Shown in pieces: positions 3,476 to 59,907 of a stretch of DNA of 64,000 nt. How positions within the stretch are numbered: the stretch's first letter is position 1; each line of letters opens with the position of its first letter. The stretch is taken from NCBI GenBank assembly GCA_964493895.1, contig CAZBPY010000004.1, positions 13,271 to 77,270 on the forward strand, in the 5' to 3' direction. The position numbers were made by a program, and so were the translations under genes. The notes below the pieces were generated by a model, which did not search any database, was not told the origin of the DNA, and saw nothing but the letters and a program-made list of their open reading frames with translations. The stretch comes from an uncultured Candidatus Saccharibacteria bacterium (lineage in GTDB: Bacteria; Patescibacteriota; Saccharimonadia; Saccharimonadales; JAGQNJ01).

Positions 3476-4802
3476 TCAACTACAAGTGAGTAGTAAAACG
3501 AAAGCACCGATTATAGCTATTGTCGGCCGGGCCAATGTGGGCAAATCCAGCCTGTTTAACGCTGTCTTGCGCCGGCGGGAAGCGATTGTTTTCGACCAGC
3601 CAGGCACTACCCGGGATGCCATAACGGCTAGGGCAGAGTGGAAAGGGCACGACTTTTGGATTGTCGATACCGCCGGCGTCAAAGATCCTGAGGATGACTT
3701 TGAGTTCACCATTCAAGAGCAAATCCAACAAGCTGCCGACAGTGCTGACATTATCTGGATGGTCATCGAAGCGAATACCCAAATTACTGATGAAGAGCGA
3801 CGACTGGCCAAGCAGGCTCTAAAGTCGAAAAAGCCAGTCTTCTTAGTTGTCAACAAGGCCGATCGGGCTCGACGGGCGACCGAAGCTGATTTCCGCCGGC
3901 TTGGTGTCAAAGACATCTTCCTGACCTCTGCCACCCAAAACCGCGGTCTAGCTGAACTTTTGGACGCCGCCATCGAAGTTATGCCCAAGGCAAACATTGC
4001 TTCCGACCCGGACACCATCACCATGGCCATACTCGGCCGGCCGAATGTCGGCAAGTCTTATTTGTTCAACACATTGGCTAAAAAGCAGCAGGCCATTGTG
4101 GCTGATGTGGCCGGGACGACGCGGGATGTAAACCGCATTACCGTTCGCCACAAACAGAAGTCAATCGAGATACTTGATACCGCCGGCATCCGCCGTAGCG
4201 GTAAGATAGGCAAGGGAATTGAACGTTTTAGTGTTATCCGGGCCCTGGCGGCTATCGAAGCAGCCGATGTCTGTCTGCTGCTGATGGATGCCAACGAACT
4301 CAACACCGCGCTGGATCAGAAAATCGCCGGCATGATTAAGGAGGCCGACAGGGGATTGATTCTGGTGGTTAGCAAGTGGGACTCCGTTGATAAAGATGCT
4401 TTTACCCGCGACCAGCTGGCGCCAGCGATTCAGCACAATTTTATCTTTGTACCCTGGGCGCCGCTGATTTTCACCAGCAGTGTAACTGGGCAAAATGTCA
4501 CCAAACTGTTTGACTTGGCTCAGGAAATTGTCTTGGCTCGTTCAACTCAGATTAAAACACCGGTGCTGAATCGCTGGCTGCAGAAGATTACAGATGAGCA
4601 CCCGCCGGCCGGGCTTAAAAATAAGACTCCTAAACTGAATTACATCGTTCAGGAAAACGACAATCCGACCAATTTTAAGGTGTTTGGCCGTGACACAAAA
4701 TTCTTGCACTGGAGCTATAAACGCTTTATGGAGCGCCGCCTGCGCGAGGAGTTCGGCTTTGAAGGCACTCCAATTAGGTTCTGGTTCTTCGACAAGAAGT
4801 AG
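3465..4802 (+). CDS. der: Ribosome-associated GTPase Der/EngA (tandem GTPase domains)
   Basis: Two P-loops (GRANVGKSS, GRPNVGKSY), two DTAG motifs, NKAD and SKWD. Overlaps the upstream gene by 11 nt. Confidence 0.93.
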   Translation: MWYNQLQVSSKTKAPIIAIVGRANVGKSSLFNAVLRRREAIVFDQPGTTRDAITARAEWKGHDFWIVDTAGVKDPEDDFEFTIQEQIQQAADSADIIWMVIEANTQITDEERRLAKQALKSKKPVFLVVNKADRARRATEADFRRLGVKDIFLTSATQNRGLAELLDAAIEVMPKANIASDPDTITMAILGRPNVGKSYLFNTLAKKQQAIVADVAGTTRDVNRITVRHKQKSIEILDTAGIRRSGKIGKGIERFSVIRALAAIEAADVCLLLMDANELNTALDQKIAGMIKEADRGLILVVSKWDSVDKDAFTRDQLAPAIQHNFIFVPWAPLIFTSSVTGQNVTKLFDLAQEIVLARSTQIKTPVLNRWLQKITDEHPPAGLKNKTPKLNYIVQENDNPTNFKVFGRDTKFLHWSYKRFMERRLREEFGFEGTPIRFWFFDKK

Positions 4803-5965: not shown

Positions 5966-6829
5966 GTGCAGAAACCAAAGCATAAGCATATTCGGAAATT
6001 GGCCGTTCCACCCCTGTTATCAAAGCTTCCTGAGGCACCAAAGCAATTATTCTCTCTTGGCGGACAACTGTCACTGCTGCTAACAAAACCGCGGGTGGCT
6101 ATTGTTGGTTCGCGCAAAATGTCGCCCTATGGACGTCAGGTCACTGAAAAGCTGGCTGGCGATTTGGTCCGTCACGGTGTAGTGATTGTCAGTGGTCTGG
6201 CCTATGGTGTTGATGTTTGCGCCCATAAAACTGTCGCAAAGGAAGGCGGAACCGGCATTGCCGTCATGGCCTGCGGGCTGGATCGGATCTATCCTACTGC
6301 TCACACTTTAATTGCACGACAGTTGACGGACAAAGGTGGTGTGATCATTTCTGAGTACGAACAGGGCACACCGGCGCTGCGACACCATTTCTTAGAGCGC
6401 AACCGCTTGGTTTCCGGCTTGGCTGACGCTGTCATCATAACCGAGGCGGCCGGGCGATCGGGGACACTAAATACGGCTGCCCATGCAATAAACCAGGGAA
6501 AACCAGTTTTGGCGGTGCCCGGCCGTTTGAATGATCCCTTGTCAGAAGGCACCAATAACTTAATAAAGTCCGGAGCCCATCTGCTTACATCTGTCGCTGA
6601 CGTATTGTCATTATTAGGTATCGGCAAGTCTACTAACCAGTCGCTGCCAGCGGCCGAGAACCAAGCCGAATATGTAATTCTTAAACTTATCGAACAGGGC
6701 ATTACTGAAGCCGGCCAACTTTTAAAACAATCTGAACTAAGTATCGCTGTTTTCAACCAAACCCTTACGATGCTGGAAATCACCTCGAAAATCAAACCGC
6801 TGGGCGCTGATAATTGGGGCCTAGCGTAA
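5966..6829 (+). CDS. dprA: DNA processing protein DprA
   Basis: VAIVGSRKMSPYGRQV, SGLAYGVDVCAH, GGVIISEY, FLERNRLVSGL. Apparent GTG start; the first in-frame ATG is about 50 codons in. Confidence 0.88.
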   Translation: MQKPKHKHIRKLAVPPLLSKLPEAPKQLFSLGGQLSLLLTKPRVAIVGSRKMSPYGRQVTEKLAGDLVRHGVVIVSGLAYGVDVCAHKTVAKEGGTGIAVMACGLDRIYPTAHTLIARQLTDKGGVIISEYEQGTPALRHHFLERNRLVSGLADAVIITEAAGRSGTLNTAAHAINQGKPVLAVPGRLNDPLSEGTNNLIKSGAHLLTSVADVLSLLGIGKSTNQSLPAAENQAEYVILKLIEQGITEAGQLLKQSELSIAVFNQTLTMLEITSKIKPLGADNWGLA

Positions 6830-6910
6830 ATTTTCGTTTGCATTGGCGGGCTTAATTCGCTACTATCCCTGCTTGTGTAAATGTAAAGGATGCTTTAGCA
6901 TAAGCAAATA

Positions 6911-9208
6911 ATGGCCAGCGCTAAAAATTTAGTAATCGTCGAGTCACCAGCCAAGGCTAAGACTATCGAGAAGTATTTGGGTAAAGACTTTGTGGTCAAG
7001 TCCAGCATGGGCCATGTCCGGTCGTTGCCCAGTAAAAACGGCAGTGTTGACGTCAAAAATAAGTTCAAGCCAGTATATGAAGTCGATCCGGACAAGACTA
7101 AAGTTATCAACGATCTTAAAAAGGCCGCCAAAGCTGCTAGCACCGTCTGGCTGGCCTCTGATGAGGACCGCGAAGGCGAGGCTATTGCCTGGCATTTGGC
7201 CGAGGTTTTAGGCCTAAACCCCAAAACAACAAAAAGGATTGCTTTCCATGAAATCACCCAATCAGCCTTGGATGAAGCGATTAAAAATCCCCGAACTATC
7301 GATGATAAATTAGTGGAGGCTCAGCAGGCACGGCAATCTCTGGATTATTTAGTGGGGTTTGAGCTAAGCCCGGTTCTGTGGCGCAAAGTGGCTCCCAGCC
7401 TAAGCGCCGGCCGTGTCCAATCGGTGGCCGTGCGACTGATTGTTGAGCGCGAGCGCGAAATCCAGGATTTCAAACCGGAAACAACCTTCAAACTTAAGGC
7501 TGTTTTTAAGCTGTCGGATGGTACAGAAATGACGGCTGAAAGTCCGACCAAGTTCAAGACCGCAGCCGCGGCTAAAAAAGTCCTGGAGGAATTTTCCAAG
7601 TCTGATTTTGAAATCGCCGATATTACTCAAAAACCGGGCAGTCGTAACCCGTCGGCGCCGTTTACAACCAGTACGCTGCAGCAAGAAGCCAGCCAAAAAT
7701 TAGGTTATAGCCCACGTCAGACCATGCAACTGGCTCAGCGTCTATACGAAGCCGGTCACATCACCTATATGCGTACCGACTCGCTGAACCTGTCAAAAAC
7801 ATCGCTGGCAGCTATGGGCAGTTACGTCAAGAAGGAACACGGCGACAAGTATTATCAATCGCGCAATTTTAAGGCTAAGACTGCCGGAGCCCAAGAGGCT
7901 CACGAAGCTATCCGGCCGACCGATGTTAAAAAGACCGAAGCTGGGGCAGATGATAAGCAGAAAAAGCTTTACAAACTCATCTGGCGCCGAGCAGTGGCCA
8001 GCCAGATGGCTCCGGCGACGATTGAAAAAACTACGGTCAGCATCAAGGCCAGTAAGTCATCCGAAGTTCTTGAGGCTAAAGGTGAAGTGGTGATTTTCGA
8101 TGGTTTTTTGAAAGTTTATGGCCGTTCTAAAGATGATACGCTGTTGCCGCCGGTCAAAGCTGGCGACAAATTGAAATTGCAATCAGCCGATGCTACTGAA
8201 ACCCTCTCTCGAGCGCCAGCACGCTATACCGAAGCTTCATTAGTCAAAAAATTGGAAGAAATGGGCATTGGCCGACCATCAACTTATGCGCCGACGATCA
8301 ACACCATACAGGCTCGAGGTTATGTCGAGCGAGCCGACGTTGAAGGTGAAGAACGCCAAATAACCAAAGTTGTCCTTCAGAGCGGCAAGGTTACTGAAAC
8401 CCAGGAGCCTTTCATGTACGGCCGCGATAGCAACAAACTAGTGCCGACCGACACCGGGCTGGTTGTGACGGACTTTTTGGTTAAGTATTTTGCCGATGTT
8501 ATGGACTACGATTTCACTAAAGATATAGAGGAAGAACTGGACGACATCGCCGAAGGCAAGAAAGACCGGATTATGGTTCTCGAACACTTCTACGGACCGT
8601 TTCACAAACTAGTCGAAGCCAGTGGTGAGGTGAGCCGCGCTGAAGCATCGCAGGCCCGGTTAGTCGGGCTGGACCCCAAGGGCAAGGTGCCGATTTATGC
8701 TCGCTTTGGCCGCTATGGCCCGATGCTTCAGCGCGGCGAGCAGTCCGACGATCCTAAACCAACCTTCGCGCCGCTTCCACAAGGCCGCAAAATTGACGAT
8801 GTCACCCTGGACGAAGCCCTAGAAATGTTCAAACTACCGCGCCTTGTGGGCAAAACCGACAAAAACGAGGAAATTATCGCTAACATTGGTCGCTATGGAC
8901 CCTATATAAAAGTTGGCGATCTGTTCGTGTCGATCAAGCCGCACGATCCGTTCACCATCGATGAAAAAACCGCTAACAAGCTCTACAAAGAAAAACTTGC
9001 CGCCGAAAGGAAGAAAAATGTGGCTGAATTTCCGTCAGGCATCAAGGTCTTAATCGGCCCCTACGGCCCCTATATCACCGACGGTAAGAAGAATGCCAAA
9101 ATCCCAAAGGACGTCGAACCCAAGGATGTCACCGAAGAGCAAGCCAAAAAACTCCTTGAAGAAGCTCCAGCCCGCAAAAAGCACCCAACCCGTCGCAATC
9201 TCTCGTGA
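6911..9208 (+). CDS. topA: DNA topoisomerase I
   Basis: 765 aa. TOPRIM LVIVESPAKAKTIEKYLG and ASDEDREGE. Active-site region GHITYMRTDS. Basic C-terminal repeats. Confidence 0.96.
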   Translation: MASAKNLVIVESPAKAKTIEKYLGKDFVVKSSMGHVRSLPSKNGSVDVKNKFKPVYEVDPDKTKVINDLKKAAKAASTVWLASDEDREGEAIAWHLAEVLGLNPKTTKRIAFHEITQSALDEAIKNPRTIDDKLVEAQQARQSLDYLVGFELSPVLWRKVAPSLSAGRVQSVAVRLIVEREREIQDFKPETTFKLKAVFKLSDGTEMTAESPTKFKTAAAAKKVLEEFSKSDFEIADITQKPGSRNPSAPFTTSTLQQEASQKLGYSPRQTMQLAQRLYEAGHITYMRTDSLNLSKTSLAAMGSYVKKEHGDKYYQSRNFKAKTAGAQEAHEAIRPTDVKKTEAGADDKQKKLYKLIWRRAVASQMAPATIEKTTVSIKASKSSEVLEAKGEVVIFDGFLKVYGRSKDDTLLPPVKAGDKLKLQSADATETLSRAPARYTEASLVKKLEEMGIGRPSTYAPTINTIQARGYVERADVEGEERQITKVVLQSGKVTETQEPFMYGRDSNKLVPTDTGLVVTDFLVKYFADVMDYDFTKDIEEELDDIAEGKKDRIMVLEHFYGPFHKLVEASGEVSRAEASQARLVGLDPKGKVPIYARFGRYGPMLQRGEQSDDPKPTFAPLPQGRKIDDVTLDEALEMFKLPRLVGKTDKNEEIIANIGRYGPYIKVGDLFVSIKPHDPFTIDEKTANKLYKEKLAAERKKNVAEFPSGIKVLIGPYGPYITDGKKNAKIPKDVEPKDVTEEQAKKLLEEAPARKKHPTRRNLS

Positions 9209-53381: not shown

Positions 53382-54161
53382 CTACGGACGCAGTGCTCCG
53401 AAGAAGACCTGCCAAGCTAAAGCTGACTTGGCCACCAGGCTTAAAATCATATAAGCCCTTTCACCGTAGAGGTAATCTTTCCAGGATCCAATTTTTTTGT
53501 ATTGCAAATACATATTGACAGCAAAACAGTTGAAAAACACCAATAAGCTGCCGAAAATCCAGTAAACAAAGCTAGGGATTTGGCCACTGCCGTAAACATT
53601 AGATCCCCAGAGGTAAATTGCCACCACAACCCATGGCACAAGGCCGGCTTTACCGCCCAAAATAAATGGCAGCCAGTTAACTTTTCGAGACTTGCCGTTC
53701 CAAACCTCCATAATTAGTCCAGTTCCGTTCATTACAGCCGTTAAGGCAAAGATCATCAGCAGGCTAGCTAGGTCATAAACACCGGCCAAAATAGCAATGG
53801 CCACCATCATGATACTAGCGCTAAAGGCATATTCATACCATCTAGCCGGATTGAGATTACTCTTGAGGTTTTTCTCATACCATCTGCGGCAAAACGTCGC
53901 TAAACTGATGTGAGCCAAAGCTGATGCCAAGAAGAAAGCCGCCACTAGCCAGGCTAGATTAACATCAAAGATCACCTGCGACGCTGGTACCAATTGAACC
54001 GAGTCGCCGGCAGTTAGGCTGTTTGGCGTCAAAAAACTAATACTGATCGGAAAGGATGCGGCTTTGGCCAGTACTAGTACTGCCACCGCCTGCACTGCAT
54101 GCAAGCCGGCCAACACAAAATTCCAAGTTCGCAAATGTTCGAAGTTAACTGTTTTTTTCAT
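53382..54161 (-). CDS. Heliorhodopsin (7-TM retinal-binding protein)
   Basis: 259 aa, 7 TM. C-terminal signature YLQYKKIGSWKDYLYGERAYMILSLVAKSALAWQVF with the Schiff-base Lys (K245). E110 in RWYEYAFSAS. H21 and H84 at family-typical positions. Confidence 0.85.
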   Translation of the reverse strand: MKKTVNFEHLRTWNFVLAGLHAVQAVAVLVLAKAASFPISISFLTPNSLTAGDSVQLVPASQVIFDVNLAWLVAAFFLASALAHISLATFCRRWYEKNLKSNLNPARWYEYAFSASIMMVAIAILAGVYDLASLLMIFALTAVMNGTGLIMEVWNGKSRKVNWLPFILGGKAGLVPWVVVAIYLWGSNVYGSGQIPSFVYWIFGSLLVFFNCFAVNMYLQYKKIGSWKDYLYGERAYMILSLVAKSALAWQVFFGALRP

Positions 54162-54173
54162 GTCTTTACTTTA

Positions 54174-54701
54174 CTACTTCTTGAGACGAGCCGCAAACTT
54201 GTCACGCAACTTTTTCAGCTTTGGATTTATTACTACTTGACAGTAAGCCGCTTCGGGGTGTTTTTGATAGTAATTATGGTGCTCAGGTTCAGCTTCATAG
54301 AAAACTTGGAGCGGCTCTACCTCTGTTACGATCGGGTCAAGCCAAAGCTTTTGAGCTTTATCAATTGACCGACGAACAATACCTTCTTGCTCTGGCGAAT
54401 TGAACAAAATAATTGAACGATATTGCGGACCAACATCATTACCCTGCCGATCCGGAGTAGTCGGATCGTGAATAGTCCAAAAGATATCCAGGATGTCCTC
54501 TAGACTGATAATTTCCGGATTAAAGGTCACCTGCACAGTTTCAGCCCAGCCGTCATCACTGCCATGCAAAGTAGCATATGACGGTTGCGGCCCCTGTCCG
54601 CCGGCATAGCCTGGTACAATCTTCTCAACACCATCAACTAGTTGGTAGGCCGCCTCCAGGCACCAGAAACAACCTCCGCCGAGAACTATTGACTGACTCA
54701 T
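54174..54701 (-). CDS. msrA: Peptide methionine (S)-S-oxide reductase
   Basis: GGGCFWCLEAAY active site. 175 aa. Confidence 0.94.
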   Translation of the reverse strand: MSQSIVLGGGCFWCLEAAYQLVDGVEKIVPGYAGGQGPQPSYATLHGSDDGWAETVQVTFNPEIISLEDILDIFWTIHDPTTPDRQGNDVGPQYRSIILFNSPEQEGIVRRSIDKAQKLWLDPIVTEVEPLQVFYEAEPEHHNYYQKHPEAAYCQVVINPKLKKLRDKFAARLKK

Positions 54702-57407: not shown

Positions 57408-57599
57408 TTAGCCCAGCAGCGCCTGCAAGCCGTAATAGACGATATAGGCTGGCCAGACGCATGCCTGCAAGAAAGCTACGACGATGTTCCAAAAGCCATC
57501 GGCGCGGCCAACGAAAAACACTAGCGCCCCGATCCAGGCCGTGAAAAATACCCAGCCACCGGGTCCGTGATTAGCTACTTTTTGACTATTCTTTCCCAT
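57408..57599 (-). CDS. Small two-TM membrane protein (hypothetical)
   Basis: 63 aa with two hydrophobic helices. Co-oriented with its neighbours. Confidence 0.45.
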   Translation of the reverse strand: MGKNSQKVANHGPGGWVFFTAWIGALVFFVGRADGFWNIVVAFLQACVWPAYIVYYGLQALLG

Positions 57600-57647: not shown

Positions 57648-58154
57648 CTATCGATCGATAGAGGACACTACAGCCTGCATTTTAACGGCCCAGCCCTGCC
57701 CATCCTCTCCCTCTAAGCTAATCATATGATAGTAAACCGGTCCGGTCGGAAAAGTTCGATCAGAAAGAGTTACATGCCAGTTTTGAGCTACCGGATCTTG
57801 CGGATCGCGGCGCGGCACGTGGTCAGTCGTCGAGACGTCGCCGGCTGGTACCTTATCCAGGTACTCTTCCCATAGCCTTCGTTCCTCAAGGTAACGCTTA
57901 ATAGCCACCTGCCTTGCATAAGCAATTGTCGGCTTCTGGGCACTGTTATAGCCAGCTATCATTACAGGTTTTGTGGGACGCTGGGCGACAACTCTCTCCA
58001 CACCTCTGCCTATAGCAGTAGTGTACCTCGTGATTAGTTTAGCCAACCGGCTGCTGGCCGCAGCATCTGGACCAGGCTGACCATCAACCAACTCATTTGA
58101 CTCTAGCACTTCGCTAGAGTGTTTTAACCAAGCATCTATTTCATGACTGTTCAT
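57648..58154 (-). CDS. Hypothetical protein (168 aa)
   Basis: ORF preceded by a promoter-leader-terminator unit (58193-58338). No motif recognised. Confidence 0.55.
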   Translation of the reverse strand: MNSHEIDAWLKHSSEVLESNELVDGQPGPDAAASSRLAKLITRYTTAIGRGVERVVAQRPTKPVMIAGYNSAQKPTIAYARQVAIKRYLEERRLWEEYLDKVPAGDVSTTDHVPRRDPQDPVAQNWHVTLSDRTFPTGPVYYHMISLEGEDGQGWAVKMQAVVSSIDR

Positions 58155-58192
58155 AAGTTCTTACTGCTAATTTCATGTATTAATCATAAAGC

Positions 58193-58218
58193 AAAAAAGG
58201 ACCGCGGGGGCCCTTTTG
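58193..58218 (-). terminator. Intrinsic terminator, 38 nt upstream of the next start codon
   Basis: The minus strand reads AAAAGGGCC CCCGC GGTCCTTTT followed by TTGC, an 8-bp stem with one mismatch and then a U-run. Confidence 0.5.
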
Positions 58219-58303
58219 TGCCTGCTAGTAAGGCTACGGGAGTCTTGCTAGCCAACAAGCGGAACTATTGCTAGCACTACTTGCTTGTCACCTCACAATG
58301 ACA
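58219..58303 (-). promoter_or_regulatory. Candidate cis-regulatory leader or small RNA with three CTAGCA repeats
   Basis: Lies between the promoter (58310-58338) and the terminator (58193-58218). Hairpins GTCA(8)TGAC, CAAGC(22)GCTTG and GCTAG(19)CTAGC. The motif GCTAGCAA/GCTAGCAA/ACTAGCAG occurs three times. Confidence 0.4.
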
Positions 58304-58309
58304 GGTCTA

Positions 58310-58338
58310 ACTATAACCCTCATCAAGCGCGCCGTCAA
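58310..58338 (-). promoter_or_regulatory. Sigma-70-type promoter downstream of lysS
   Basis: Minus strand TTGACG (58338-58333), 17 nt, TATAGT (58315-58310). Confidence 0.5.
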
Positions 58339-58395
58339 GATATCATTGTAAAAACTACAAATTATGATATAAATGCTTATGTTTATGTTTCGGAG

Positions 58396-59907
58396 TTAAT
58401 CGAAGTTGATGTCGGGGTAAATTGCCCTGGTGGTGGCATCGATCTCTGCCCTAAGTTGCGGGAATGGCACGCCTTCACGGGCTGAAACACCTTCAAATAC
58501 CCAAAAAACTCTTTCCGAATAACCCAAACCGCAAGCCGGCGGCATGCCATACTCCAGCATCTCGACATAATCAATATCCAGCATCTGGGCTTCATCGTCA
58601 CCCTCGTCGCGCAGGCGCTGCTGCTCCATGAAACGCTCTAATTGATCAATCGGGTCGTTCAGCTCACTCCAACCATTACACAGCTCCGAACCAGCAATAA
58701 CTGCTTGAAAACGCTGTACAAATCGTCCATCCTTGTCATCGGTCTTCGACAACGGCGAAATAAACGTCGGTGTGTCGATCAGCCAAACTGGACCGGCGAC
58801 CTCGGCACGAACCTTTTTCCATAACTTATCAATACCGCGAGCTCGATTTTCAGTCTTCTCGACCTCAATATTATGTTTCTTAAGTTGGGCTTTGACTTCA
58901 TCTAAAGTGCAATCAAAAACATCCAGGCCGTAGTGTTCTTTAATAACATCAGCGTATTTCCATCGCTCCCAACGAGCACCCATATCAACTTGCTTGCCCT
59001 CAATAGTGAACTTCAGGGTTCCGAAAGTTTCTTTGAGGACTTGTTTGAACATTTCCTCCATCATGGCCATGCCGTCTTGCCAGTCGGCATAAGCCCAGTA
59101 CCACTCCATGGCCACGTGTTCGGGCAAATGCTCATCGGAGTAATTTTCGTTTCTAAACCGCGGACCGATATCAAAAACCTTCTCAAAACCGCCGCCCAAC
59201 AAACGCTTGAGGGGTAATTCATGGCTAATGCGCAAGTAAAAATCCTGATCCAAGGCATCCATGTGCGTCACAAATGGCGTAGCATCAGCCCCACCAGTGG
59301 TGTGTTCTAAAACTGGAATGTTGATTTCTAGAAAGTCACGTTTGAGGAGAAAATCACGCGTAGCTTGCCAGAACTTGCTGCGGCGCACAAACCTTTGGCG
59401 CACCTCTGGATTGACGTTCATGTCAACATAGCGTCGGCGCATCCGCTCTTCTTTATTAGTAAAGCCATTCTCGGCCGTTGGCATAGGTCGTAGCGACTTG
59501 GTTAGTAGGCGCAACTTCTCGACATCAACTGAAATCTCGCCAGTTTGAGTCTTGACCACCTTGCCGCTGGCTTCGACAAAATCGCCCGGATCTAACAGGC
59601 TCAGATCAGTAAATTCTAACTCACTGTTTTTATAATCAGCCGATTCAATGCCGCCAGATCGCAAAAACAATTGGACATCACCGCTAGCGTCGCGCAGGAC
59701 TACAAAGGCTAGTTTACCAATGTCACGAATCCGGATAATTCGGCCGACAACCGAGACCTGTTGGCCTTCTAGGCTGGAAAAATCCTTGATGACTTCAGCG
59801 TTGGTGTGGGTACGATTTGAATTAGCCGGATAGGGGTTAACTCCCAAATCACGCAATTGTTTAAGTTTACGTAGCCGCTCATCGCGCAGCTCTTGCAGGT
59901 TTGCCAT
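58396..59907 (-). CDS. lysS: Lysine--tRNA ligase (class II)
   Basis: 503 aa. OB-fold N-terminus (VSVVGRIIRIRDIGKLAFVVLRD). Class II motifs (FRNE, GGADATPF region, GLGYSERV). Confidence 0.95.
   Translation of the reverse strand: MANLQELRDERLRKLKQLRDLGVNPYPANSNRTHTNAEVIKDFSSLEGQQVSVVGRIIRIRDIGKLAFVVLRDASGDVQLFLRSGGIESADYKNSELEFTDLSLLDPGDFVEASGKVVKTQTGEISVDVEKLRLLTKSLRPMPTAENGFTNKEERMRRRYVDMNVNPEVRQRFVRRSKFWQATRDFLLKRDFLEINIPVLEHTTGGADATPFVTHMDALDQDFYLRISHELPLKRLLGGGFEKVFDIGPRFRNENYSDEHLPEHVAMEWYWAYADWQDGMAMMEEMFKQVLKETFGTLKFTIEGKQVDMGARWERWKYADVIKEHYGLDVFDCTLDEVKAQLKKHNIEVEKTENRARGIDKLWKKVRAEVAGPVWLIDTPTFISPLSKTDDKDGRFVQRFQAVIAGSELCNGWSELNDPIDQLERFMEQQRLRDEGDDEAQMLDIDYVEMLEYGMPPACGLGYSERVFWVFEGVSAREGVPFPQLRAEIDATTRAIYPDINFD

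Follow-up and report, generated by a model that had tools for sequence, protein, structure and literature searches.

A predicted structured RNA downstream of lysS in Saccharibacteria, with its own promoter and a terminator in common with lysS, is a candidate stand-alone small RNA

The window analysed here, a stretch of 64,000 nucleotides (nt) from an uncultured Saccharibacteria bacterium, carries an RNA element of ~111 nt directly downstream of lysS. On the minus strand, to which all features of the window described below belong, the gene order is proS, greA, lysS, the RNA, an open reading frame (ORF) of 168 amino acids (aa), a gene for a 63-aa membrane protein, a gene for a 797-aa surface protein with Ig domains, a 58-aa ORF, msrA, and a heliorhodopsin gene. 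lysS (58396-59907) encodes a class II lysyl-tRNA synthetase (LysRS) with the Pfam domain tRNA-synt_2 and an OB anticodon-binding domain, and the 80 closest lysS loci among GTDB species representatives belong without exception to Saccharibacteria or Saccharimonadales. The predicted primary transcript spans 58192-58303, as deduced from the geometry of a promoter and a terminator: it would start 7 to 8 nt past the -10 box, at an invariant U/G that opens the first hairpin (H1), and would end in the T run of the terminator. An initial annotation of this locus had placed a promoter after the lysS stop codon, an RNA from ~58303 that folds into several hairpins, and an intrinsic terminator just ahead of the 168-aa gene. 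It had read the arrangement as a riboswitch, attenuator or protein-dependent antiterminator gating that gene, and had named a free-standing small RNA as a fallback.

The region proved to be conserved, as the initial annotation would require. Besides the window, the element is found in four other distinct contigs (loci L083, L089, L092 and L110), and in all five it lies directly after a LysRS gene. L083, the first homologue, was reached through contigs of the closest LysRS proteins, and its lysS is 84% identical to that of the window. L089, with its near-identical copies L090 and L091, and L092 were reached through contigs that carry members of the 63-aa protein family. An exact 17-mer scan of Joint Genome Institute (JGI) metagenomes returned 28 loci, among which L110 is the sole true homologue; the other 27 are chance matches, two of them being Stem III hairpins of T-box leaders. 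A further hit, L081, is not counted as a distinct homologue, being the sequence of the window itself as found in a Logan read assembly; an exact copy is present in run SRR9016294. The order greA-LysRS-RNA is kept, with a class II LysRS in the window, L083 and L092 and a class I LysRS (PF01921, KMSKS motif) in L089 and L110. The class I genes lie at L089:524-2056 and, in L110, on the minus strand upstream of the RNA. This looks like in-place replacement of one LysRS class by the unrelated other.

RNAs of this family occur where lysS is 84% or 76% identical to that of the window, and also beside class I LysRS, and are absent where lysS is 83%, 81% or 78-81% identical; the close relatives without the RNA are L084 (83%) and L086 (81%). 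No such RNA was detected downstream of lysS in the 80 GTDB species representatives by BLAST, fuzzy-pattern, covariance model (CM) or nhmmer searches, and synteny is not conserved there. The RNA is likewise absent from ~90 related LysRS loci according to CM and nhmmer searches. Viral contigs scanned with the RNA pattern and the 63-aa protein yielded no relatives and one chance match in a coding region. An Rfam scan, which had been proposed as a check, matched no known class: the window and the five loci gave no hit to Rfam 15 at the gathering score, and at E <= 10 only chance hits appeared (ToxI at 18 bits, SraG, snoR30). Signal recognition particle (SRP) RNA, 6S RNA, 5S-like RNA and group II domain V were considered by eye and set aside, their defining motifs being absent and Rfam giving no hit. 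A housekeeping RNA of similar size (SRP 4.5S, 6S) was rejected on the lack of an Rfam hit and on the absence of the element from the ~90 related LysRS loci. The RNA family is new and small, an element of a familiar kind and not a new kind of system.

The promoter lies where it had been predicted. A promoter scan found TTGACG-17-TATAGT, with the -35 box at 58333-58338 and the -10 box at 58310-58315; it has 10 of 12 consensus matches and a 17-nt spacer, and begins 58 nt beyond the stop codon of lysS (58396-58398). All five loci have an identical -10 box. At the -35 position three homologues have TTGACC and L110 has TTGCGC, and the box counts as kept in four of the five, while the spacer is 17-18 nt long and its sequence shows no conservation. 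Conserved boxes around a free spacer are the pattern expected of a working promoter, and the RNA gene is predicted to have a strong sigma-70-type promoter of its own. Upstream of this promoter is a conserved AT-rich element, TGTAGTTTTTAC(nACGAAG), at 58348-58359, which is near-invariant in all five loci and could be a putative UP-like element or factor-binding site. In the four homologues the conserved TGTAGTTTTTACnACGAAG block starts at the LysRS stop codon or at most ~15 nt from it.

At the other end, the terminator scan and the alignment agree on an intrinsic terminator, H4 (58189-58223), as expected just ahead of the 168-aa gene. It has the core GGGCC-CCCGC-GGUCC, an A-U extension and then U6. 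In the DNA the terminator is AAAAGGGCC-CCCGC-GGTCCTTTT at 58217-58195, with a T run to 58193 that is separated by ~39 nt from the ATG at 58154. The family form of H4 is GGACC-CCCGC-GGUCC followed by U6-7, and a homologous GC-rich stem with a U tract is present in all five sequences. The scan found no terminator-like site between the lysS stop (58396) and 58217, and likewise none before the RNA in the five loci. LysRS transcripts must therefore cross H1-H3 and end at H4, and H4 is predicted to be common to the RNA and the lysS transcript. L084, whose lysS is 83% identical to that of the window, has a homologous terminator with similar flanks right after its lysS stop codon, and has neither the promoter nor H1-H3. 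We take it that the terminator existed before it became associated with the RNA, or at any rate does not depend on the RNA.

The placement of the RNA always after a LysRS gene, whether class II or class I, with the LysRS terminator in common and no terminator intervening, could also mean that it is simply a 3' untranslated region (3' UTR) element of the LysRS mRNA, serving stability, processing or localisation. The promoter-like sequence would then be secondary, and the RNA would have no trans function. However, the preserved hexamers, the free spacer and the upstream AT-rich element point to real initiation, and the close relatives L084 and L086 manage without the RNA. We give this explanation little weight.

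The consensus of the five sequences (alignment A3) consists of four tandem hairpins, H1-H4, so that the RNA predicted to start near 58303 does fold into several hairpins. H1 (58286-58303; UGUCAUU-GUGA-GGUGACA) is a seven-pair stem, with two U-G pairs among the seven, closed by a GNRA loop; the five sequences agree at all 18 of its nt, in the stem as well as in the loop. Within H1 lies GAGGUGA, a Shine-Dalgarno-like, 7-nt complement of the 3' end of 16S rRNA. H2 (58255-58284), defined by the alignment and by covariation, has a 12-bp interrupted stem with the invariant apex A-GCAA-U (58272-58267); its stem sequence is almost wholly different between genomes with pairing kept, and 7 of the 12 pairs are changed on both sides. 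H3 (58224-58252), defined in the same way, has a 9-bp stem plus 2 pairs and the cap ACUCCCGUAGC at 58243-58233, which is conserved as A-CU-CCCGU-AG-C and whose apical loop, CCCGU, includes a UCCC motif. Changes on both sides affect 5 of the 11 pairs of H3. The same RNA thus combines a Shine-Dalgarno-like heptamer (GAGGUGA of H1) with a loop of the anti-Shine-Dalgarno type (UCCC of H3), and the two are not mutually complementary.

The initial annotation had suggested aligning lysS-downstream regions and testing them for covariation. With the four further contigs aligned to the window, 91.7% of cells are paired under the consensus fold and 13 pairs show compensatory changes, as against 6.4 +/- 1.6 in column shuffles, none of 500 of which reaches 13. 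A slid-partner control gave just 1-4 pairs that change on both sides. The consensus fold is the sequence's own minimum-energy fold in four of the five. The RNA of the window folds at -43.6 kcal/mol (z = -3.5; 0 of 200 shuffles fold as well), and this minimum is a rod-like fold, the consensus fold being at -40.7 kcal/mol. The rod-like fold is caused by a CTAGCA repeat described below. It was rejected as the structure of the RNA since the other four sequences have a different minimum-energy fold and covariation lends it no support, and it is a possible alternative conformer. The strand of the RNA is fixed by G-U pairs, the U tract and CM scores of 115-130 bits forward against 25-34 on the reverse strand. 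No start codon or ORF common to the five sequences can be read from the alignment, and a small ORF within the RNA was rejected. We conclude that the element is a conserved structured non-coding RNA, as predicted from these comparisons.

Attention had also been drawn to three CTAGCA motifs at intervals of ~25 nt. The three copies are real, but their spacing is exactly 23 nt: the octamers are GCTAGCAA at 58275-58268, GCTAGCAA at 58252-58245 and ACTAGCAG at 58229-58222. CTAGCA is not enriched across the window (27 found vs 30.7 expected), but only 4 of 1000 sequences simulated with a first-order Markov model had three same-strand copies within 60 nt. The first copy forms the apex of H2 (CUA-GCAA-UAG), and the second and third form the stem strands of H3, GCUAGCAAG paired with CUUACUAGC. 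The same H3 positions hold GCCAGUGAA/UUCACCGGC, GCCAGCGAA/UUCGCCGGC and GUCAGUAAG/CUUUGCUGAC in other genomes, and the triple CTAGCA is peculiar to this genome and absent from the four homologues. The repeat is therefore a by-product of stem sequences in one genome. Judged by the alignment, the triple is not a conserved protein-binding or operator motif.

These motifs had suggested that GCTAGC palindromes are DNA operators for a repressor, and they could otherwise be seen as a ToxI-like antitoxin array paired with a 168-aa toxin in a type III toxin-antitoxin system. The exact spacing and its rarity in the simulations are compatible with either idea, and a partial ToxI match (18 bits, E = 1.6) and a layout of promoter, short RNA, terminator and ~170-aa gene that resembles type III loci are compatible with the second. 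However, the motifs are not conserved in the homologues and are accounted for by the H2 apex and H3 strands, and no tandem repeat units beyond 8-mers were found (8-11-nt seeds only). The ToxI match falls well short of the gathering score of 50 and is confined to the window's copy. For the 168-aa protein, PADLOC and Pfam give no toxin family, and the other four RNA loci do not encode it. Operators and a ToxI-like array are refuted at the comparative level, and we regard them as exceedingly improbable.

The genes downstream of the RNA are variable. The 168-aa ORF (57648-58154), termed an orphan in the initial annotation, has host-like codon usage in frame 0 only (+0.33 bits per codon, negative in the other five frames), a score comparable to that of msrA, and is a real, lineage-specific gene. 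In a word-indexed search of 5.8 billion proteins its product matches itself only; a full HMMER scan added P0225 and P0226, remote homologues at 27-28% identity that share conserved W, RP, NW..DR and GW..KM positions with it. The protein has no family match in Pfam, NCBIfam or PADLOC, and its AlphaFold model has a mean predicted local distance difference test (pLDDT) score of 43, too poor for a fold search. Neither a Shine-Dalgarno sequence nor a promoter of its own was found for the 168-aa gene. None of the other four RNA loci contains this gene, which therefore falls outside the conserved RNA unit.

In each of the five loci, the first conserved gene that follows the RNA encodes the 63-aa two-helix membrane protein (57408-57599 in the window). 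This conserved family comprises 103 protein clusters and has no Pfam match, and its hits come from Saccharibacteria contigs. The gene in the window has a strong Shine-Dalgarno sequence, GGGAGGG, and a GGGAG-type sequence is also found in L083. It immediately follows the RNA in L083 and L110, whereas unrelated proteins of 168, 212 or 245 aa are encoded immediately downstream in the window, L089 and L092. The 63-aa gene is at most one gene away from the RNA in every locus.

In a cis-regulatory leader, either a riboswitch or a protein-dependent attenuator, the terminator would decide whether transcription that comes from lysS, or from the promoter of the RNA itself, continues into the 168-aa and 63-aa genes and those beyond. 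In all five loci the RNA immediately precedes the downstream genes and shares their strand, with the 63-aa gene close by. Just as had been claimed, there is no good promoter in front of the 168-aa gene: the promoter scan finds no promoter-like site between the terminator and the ATG, and at the corresponding place in L083 only a weak one. Moreover, where the 63-aa gene follows LysRS without the RNA it continues the LysRS operon after a gap of 32-54 nt, so the RNA and terminator would insert a control point. A 7-bp alternative pairing of GUGAGGU in H1 with the 3' strand of H3 is also possible in all five sequences (100% of cells paired). That pairing, however, leaves the terminator core untouched and shows no covariation. 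No partner that pairs with either terminator arm is conserved in the five sequences, and in folds cut after the terminator loop the 5' arm is unpaired, save for a weak 4-bp contact in L089, so that there is no conserved antiterminator. Also contrary to a leader, the immediate downstream gene encodes an unrelated protein in three of five loci, the same terminator occurs without the RNA in L084, and most 63-aa orthologues (at least seven loci: L086, L093, L096-L098, L127 and L128, with upstream gaps of 32-90 nt) have no RNA. The three separate loop-capped hairpins are atypical of a junction-built aptamer, and Rfam contains no riboswitch or leader that matches. The lack of a competing pairing, the variable downstream gene and the terminator of L084 thus argue against the idea that a riboswitch, attenuator or antiterminator gates the orphan gene. 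Overall we consider a leader unlikely, and leaky or regulated read-through into the downstream genes possible.

The identity of 18 nt of H1 in five genomes, despite diverged H2 and H3 stems, is typical of sequence-specific recognition. Such an RNA could bind a protein or associate with the ribosome, with H1 (GAGGUGA) and the conserved loops being recognised, and could act by sequestration or as a scaffold. The exact 17-mer that forms H1, GTCATTGTGAGGTGACA, is also found in two unrelated T-box leaders, where it makes up Stem III (L109:261-277 and L112:3321-3337), which hints at a reusable module. These leaders (L109:79-317 and L112:3141-3375) score 87 bits against an Rfam gathering score of 93. 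The L109 leader, whose specifier is AAA, stands before a lysS only 40% identical to that of the window; in the L112 leader the specifier is AUG, and the genes that follow are metA and one for an O-acetylhomoserine sulfhydrylase. The occurrence of GUCAUUGUGAGGUGAC in T-box Stem III may reflect a recurrent hairpin module or a coincidence. A binding role nevertheless lacks a candidate partner protein among the uncharacterised, variable neighbours, repeated binding motifs such as those of CsrB or 6S are missing from the RNA, and its distribution among close relatives is patchy. We find such a role rather doubtful, even more so than a leader. Separately, several copies of the 17-mer are found in a 23-nt tandem repeat array (GGTCATTGTGAGGTGATAGTATC) on a metagenome contig (L114:780-1150) that is unrelated to the RNA family.

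The explanation that we favour, with moderate confidence, is that the element is an independently transcribed, trans-acting small RNA (sRNA) nested in the LysRS 3' UTR. The free-standing small RNA that had been only a fallback is favoured by the conserved promoter, the compensatory structure, the shared terminator and the lack of an antiterminator. An RNA of ~111 nt would start at its own promoter in the lysS 3' UTR and end at the lysS terminator, and it would accumulate as a stable, stand-alone sRNA, possibly also supplied by processing of lysS mRNA. It would most likely act in trans by using the UCCC exposed in the H3 loop to pair with G-rich ribosome-binding sites, and an alternative route would be protein binding through the invariant H1. 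Downstream genes would receive only terminator leakage. There are precedents for both aspects: DapZ and MicX are sRNAs with their own promoter at the end of an upstream coding sequence (PMC9438474), and UCCC loops of LhrC, RsaE and RNAIII bind 5'-GGGAG ribosome-binding sites (PMC4132741, PMC2790875). By analogy, anti-Shine-Dalgarno pairing through H3 is the leading, although unproven, mode of action for an sRNA at this locus.

Several points weigh against a stand-alone sRNA. Where transcription starts, where the RNA ends and how abundant it is are predictions only. The covariation comes from five distinct sequences, and with a model whose effective sequence number is 0.96 its statistics can be called suggestive but not rigorous. 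The apical region of H3 reads CUCCCG in four of the five sequences but CUCUCG in L110. A duplex scan of 211 translation-initiation regions of the window singled out no target; the 63-aa gene ranks 32nd, and its complementarity to the H3 loop is the generic 5-nt GGGAG only. Full invariance of H1 fits a protein or another fixed partner better than it fits anti-Shine-Dalgarno action. The alternative pairing between H1 and H3, possible in every sequence, must also be counted here. Finally, the absence of a good promoter before the downstream genes in the window and L083 means that read-through matters there, which a cis-regulator would also predict.

A more speculative proposal is that the RNA senses a signal from tRNA-Lys, LysRS or lysine, and uses the alternative pairing of H1 and H3 to control how active it is itself, or else the read-through that reaches the membrane-protein genes. 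It would then represent a new, Saccharibacteria-restricted class of structured regulatory RNAs coupled in function to LysRS. In its favour, the RNA stays beside LysRS across the switch between class II and class I, and H1 is identical to Stem III of T-box leaders, one of them controlling a lysS gene. We see this proposal as a long shot.

Other observations concern the neighbourhoods of these loci. The neighbouring 168-, 212-, 245-, 203/206- and 138-aa proteins have no match in Pfam, and the 212- and 245-aa proteins have none in NCBIfam either. Uncharacterised paralogous families of 200-220 aa, without a Pfam or NCBIfam match, follow LysRS and are duplicated within loci (L089:2300-2938 and 3768-4430; L092:3797-4441; L083:7987-9268; L030:~6679-7026), and the presence of the ~210-aa paralogue family does not track the RNA. 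LysRS itself occurs in Saccharibacteria as fusion proteins, one form having a C-terminal DUF2000 domain (~653 aa) and another an AlaX-like editing domain (PF01411/PF07973; ~770 aa), as seen at L093:1007-2968 and L094:850-2811, downstream of lysS in L006-L008, and in proteins P0030, P0040 and P0016. Directly upstream of a member of the 63-aa family in L096 is a UvrB gene (L096:1-2924) split by an intein with a LAGLIDADG homing endonuclease, giving 1181 aa as compared with 654 aa in L097 and L098. Farther along the window, msrA (54174-54701) is immediately upstream of the heliorhodopsin gene (53382-54161). The two genes have this order and adjacency in three different genomes (the window, L083:11305-12654 and L093:5168-6189), which suggests that they are a conserved gene pair of the lineage.

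Saccharibacteria and other bacteria of the Candidate Phyla Radiation (CPR) have tiny genomes and depend on hosts. We found no papers on sRNAs, regulatory RNAs or structured RNAs in Saccharibacteria or other CPR bacteria, and a conserved sRNA gene would be a concrete first candidate for RNA-based regulation in these organisms. The covariance model (R1) and alignment A3 provide a defined model with which to look for more members. For annotation, the LysRS operon can be taken to end at the terminator shared with the predicted sRNA, and the genes behind it as variable, lineage-specific small proteins, not as a riboswitch regulon.

Among known systems, type III loci with ToxI share with this locus a short RNA, a terminator and a ~170-aa gene, together with a weak, partial ToxI hit. 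The RNA described here, however, has no tandem repeat array to compare with their ~36-nt repeats and no ToxN-like protein, and the 18 bits are at chance level and found in one member. T-box leaders (RF00230) resemble the RNA in that H1 equals Stem III over 17-20 nt in two leaders, and in that both are linked to an aminoacyl-tRNA synthetase gene. Yet the RNA has no Stem I, specifier loop, T-box sequence, UGGN bulge or antiterminator, it lies downstream of LysRS instead of upstream, and it gives no RF00230 hit at E <= 10. Riboswitch and attenuator leaders also combine a promoter, a structured and conserved RNA, a terminator and same-strand genes without an obvious promoter, but in the present RNA the conserved structure does not overlap the terminator, and there is no antiterminator.

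RNAs of the RsaE/RoxS and LhrC type and the hairpins of RNAIII (PMC2790875, PMC4132741) differ from the RNA in having two or three UCCC loops where it has one clear loop, which is UCUC in one homologue. They also lack the GNRA loops of its H1 and H2, and Rfam does not match them to it. Like them, however, it is built of short hairpins and a terminator and presents UCCC in an apical loop (CUCCCGU of H3); its terminator loop is also C-rich, and the downstream 63-aa gene has a GGGAG-type ribosome-binding site. The 3'-nested sRNAs DapZ (after dapB), MicX and MicL (PMC9438474) are enterobacterial or Vibrio RNAs that depend on Hfq and have mapped targets, whereas the RNA described here is a predicted one from Saccharibacteria, a CPR lineage. 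Although it has no sequence or Rfam relationship to them, it has the same architecture: a promoter at or after the upstream stop codon, no intervening terminator, one Rho-independent terminator that is shared, and a length of ~100 nt.

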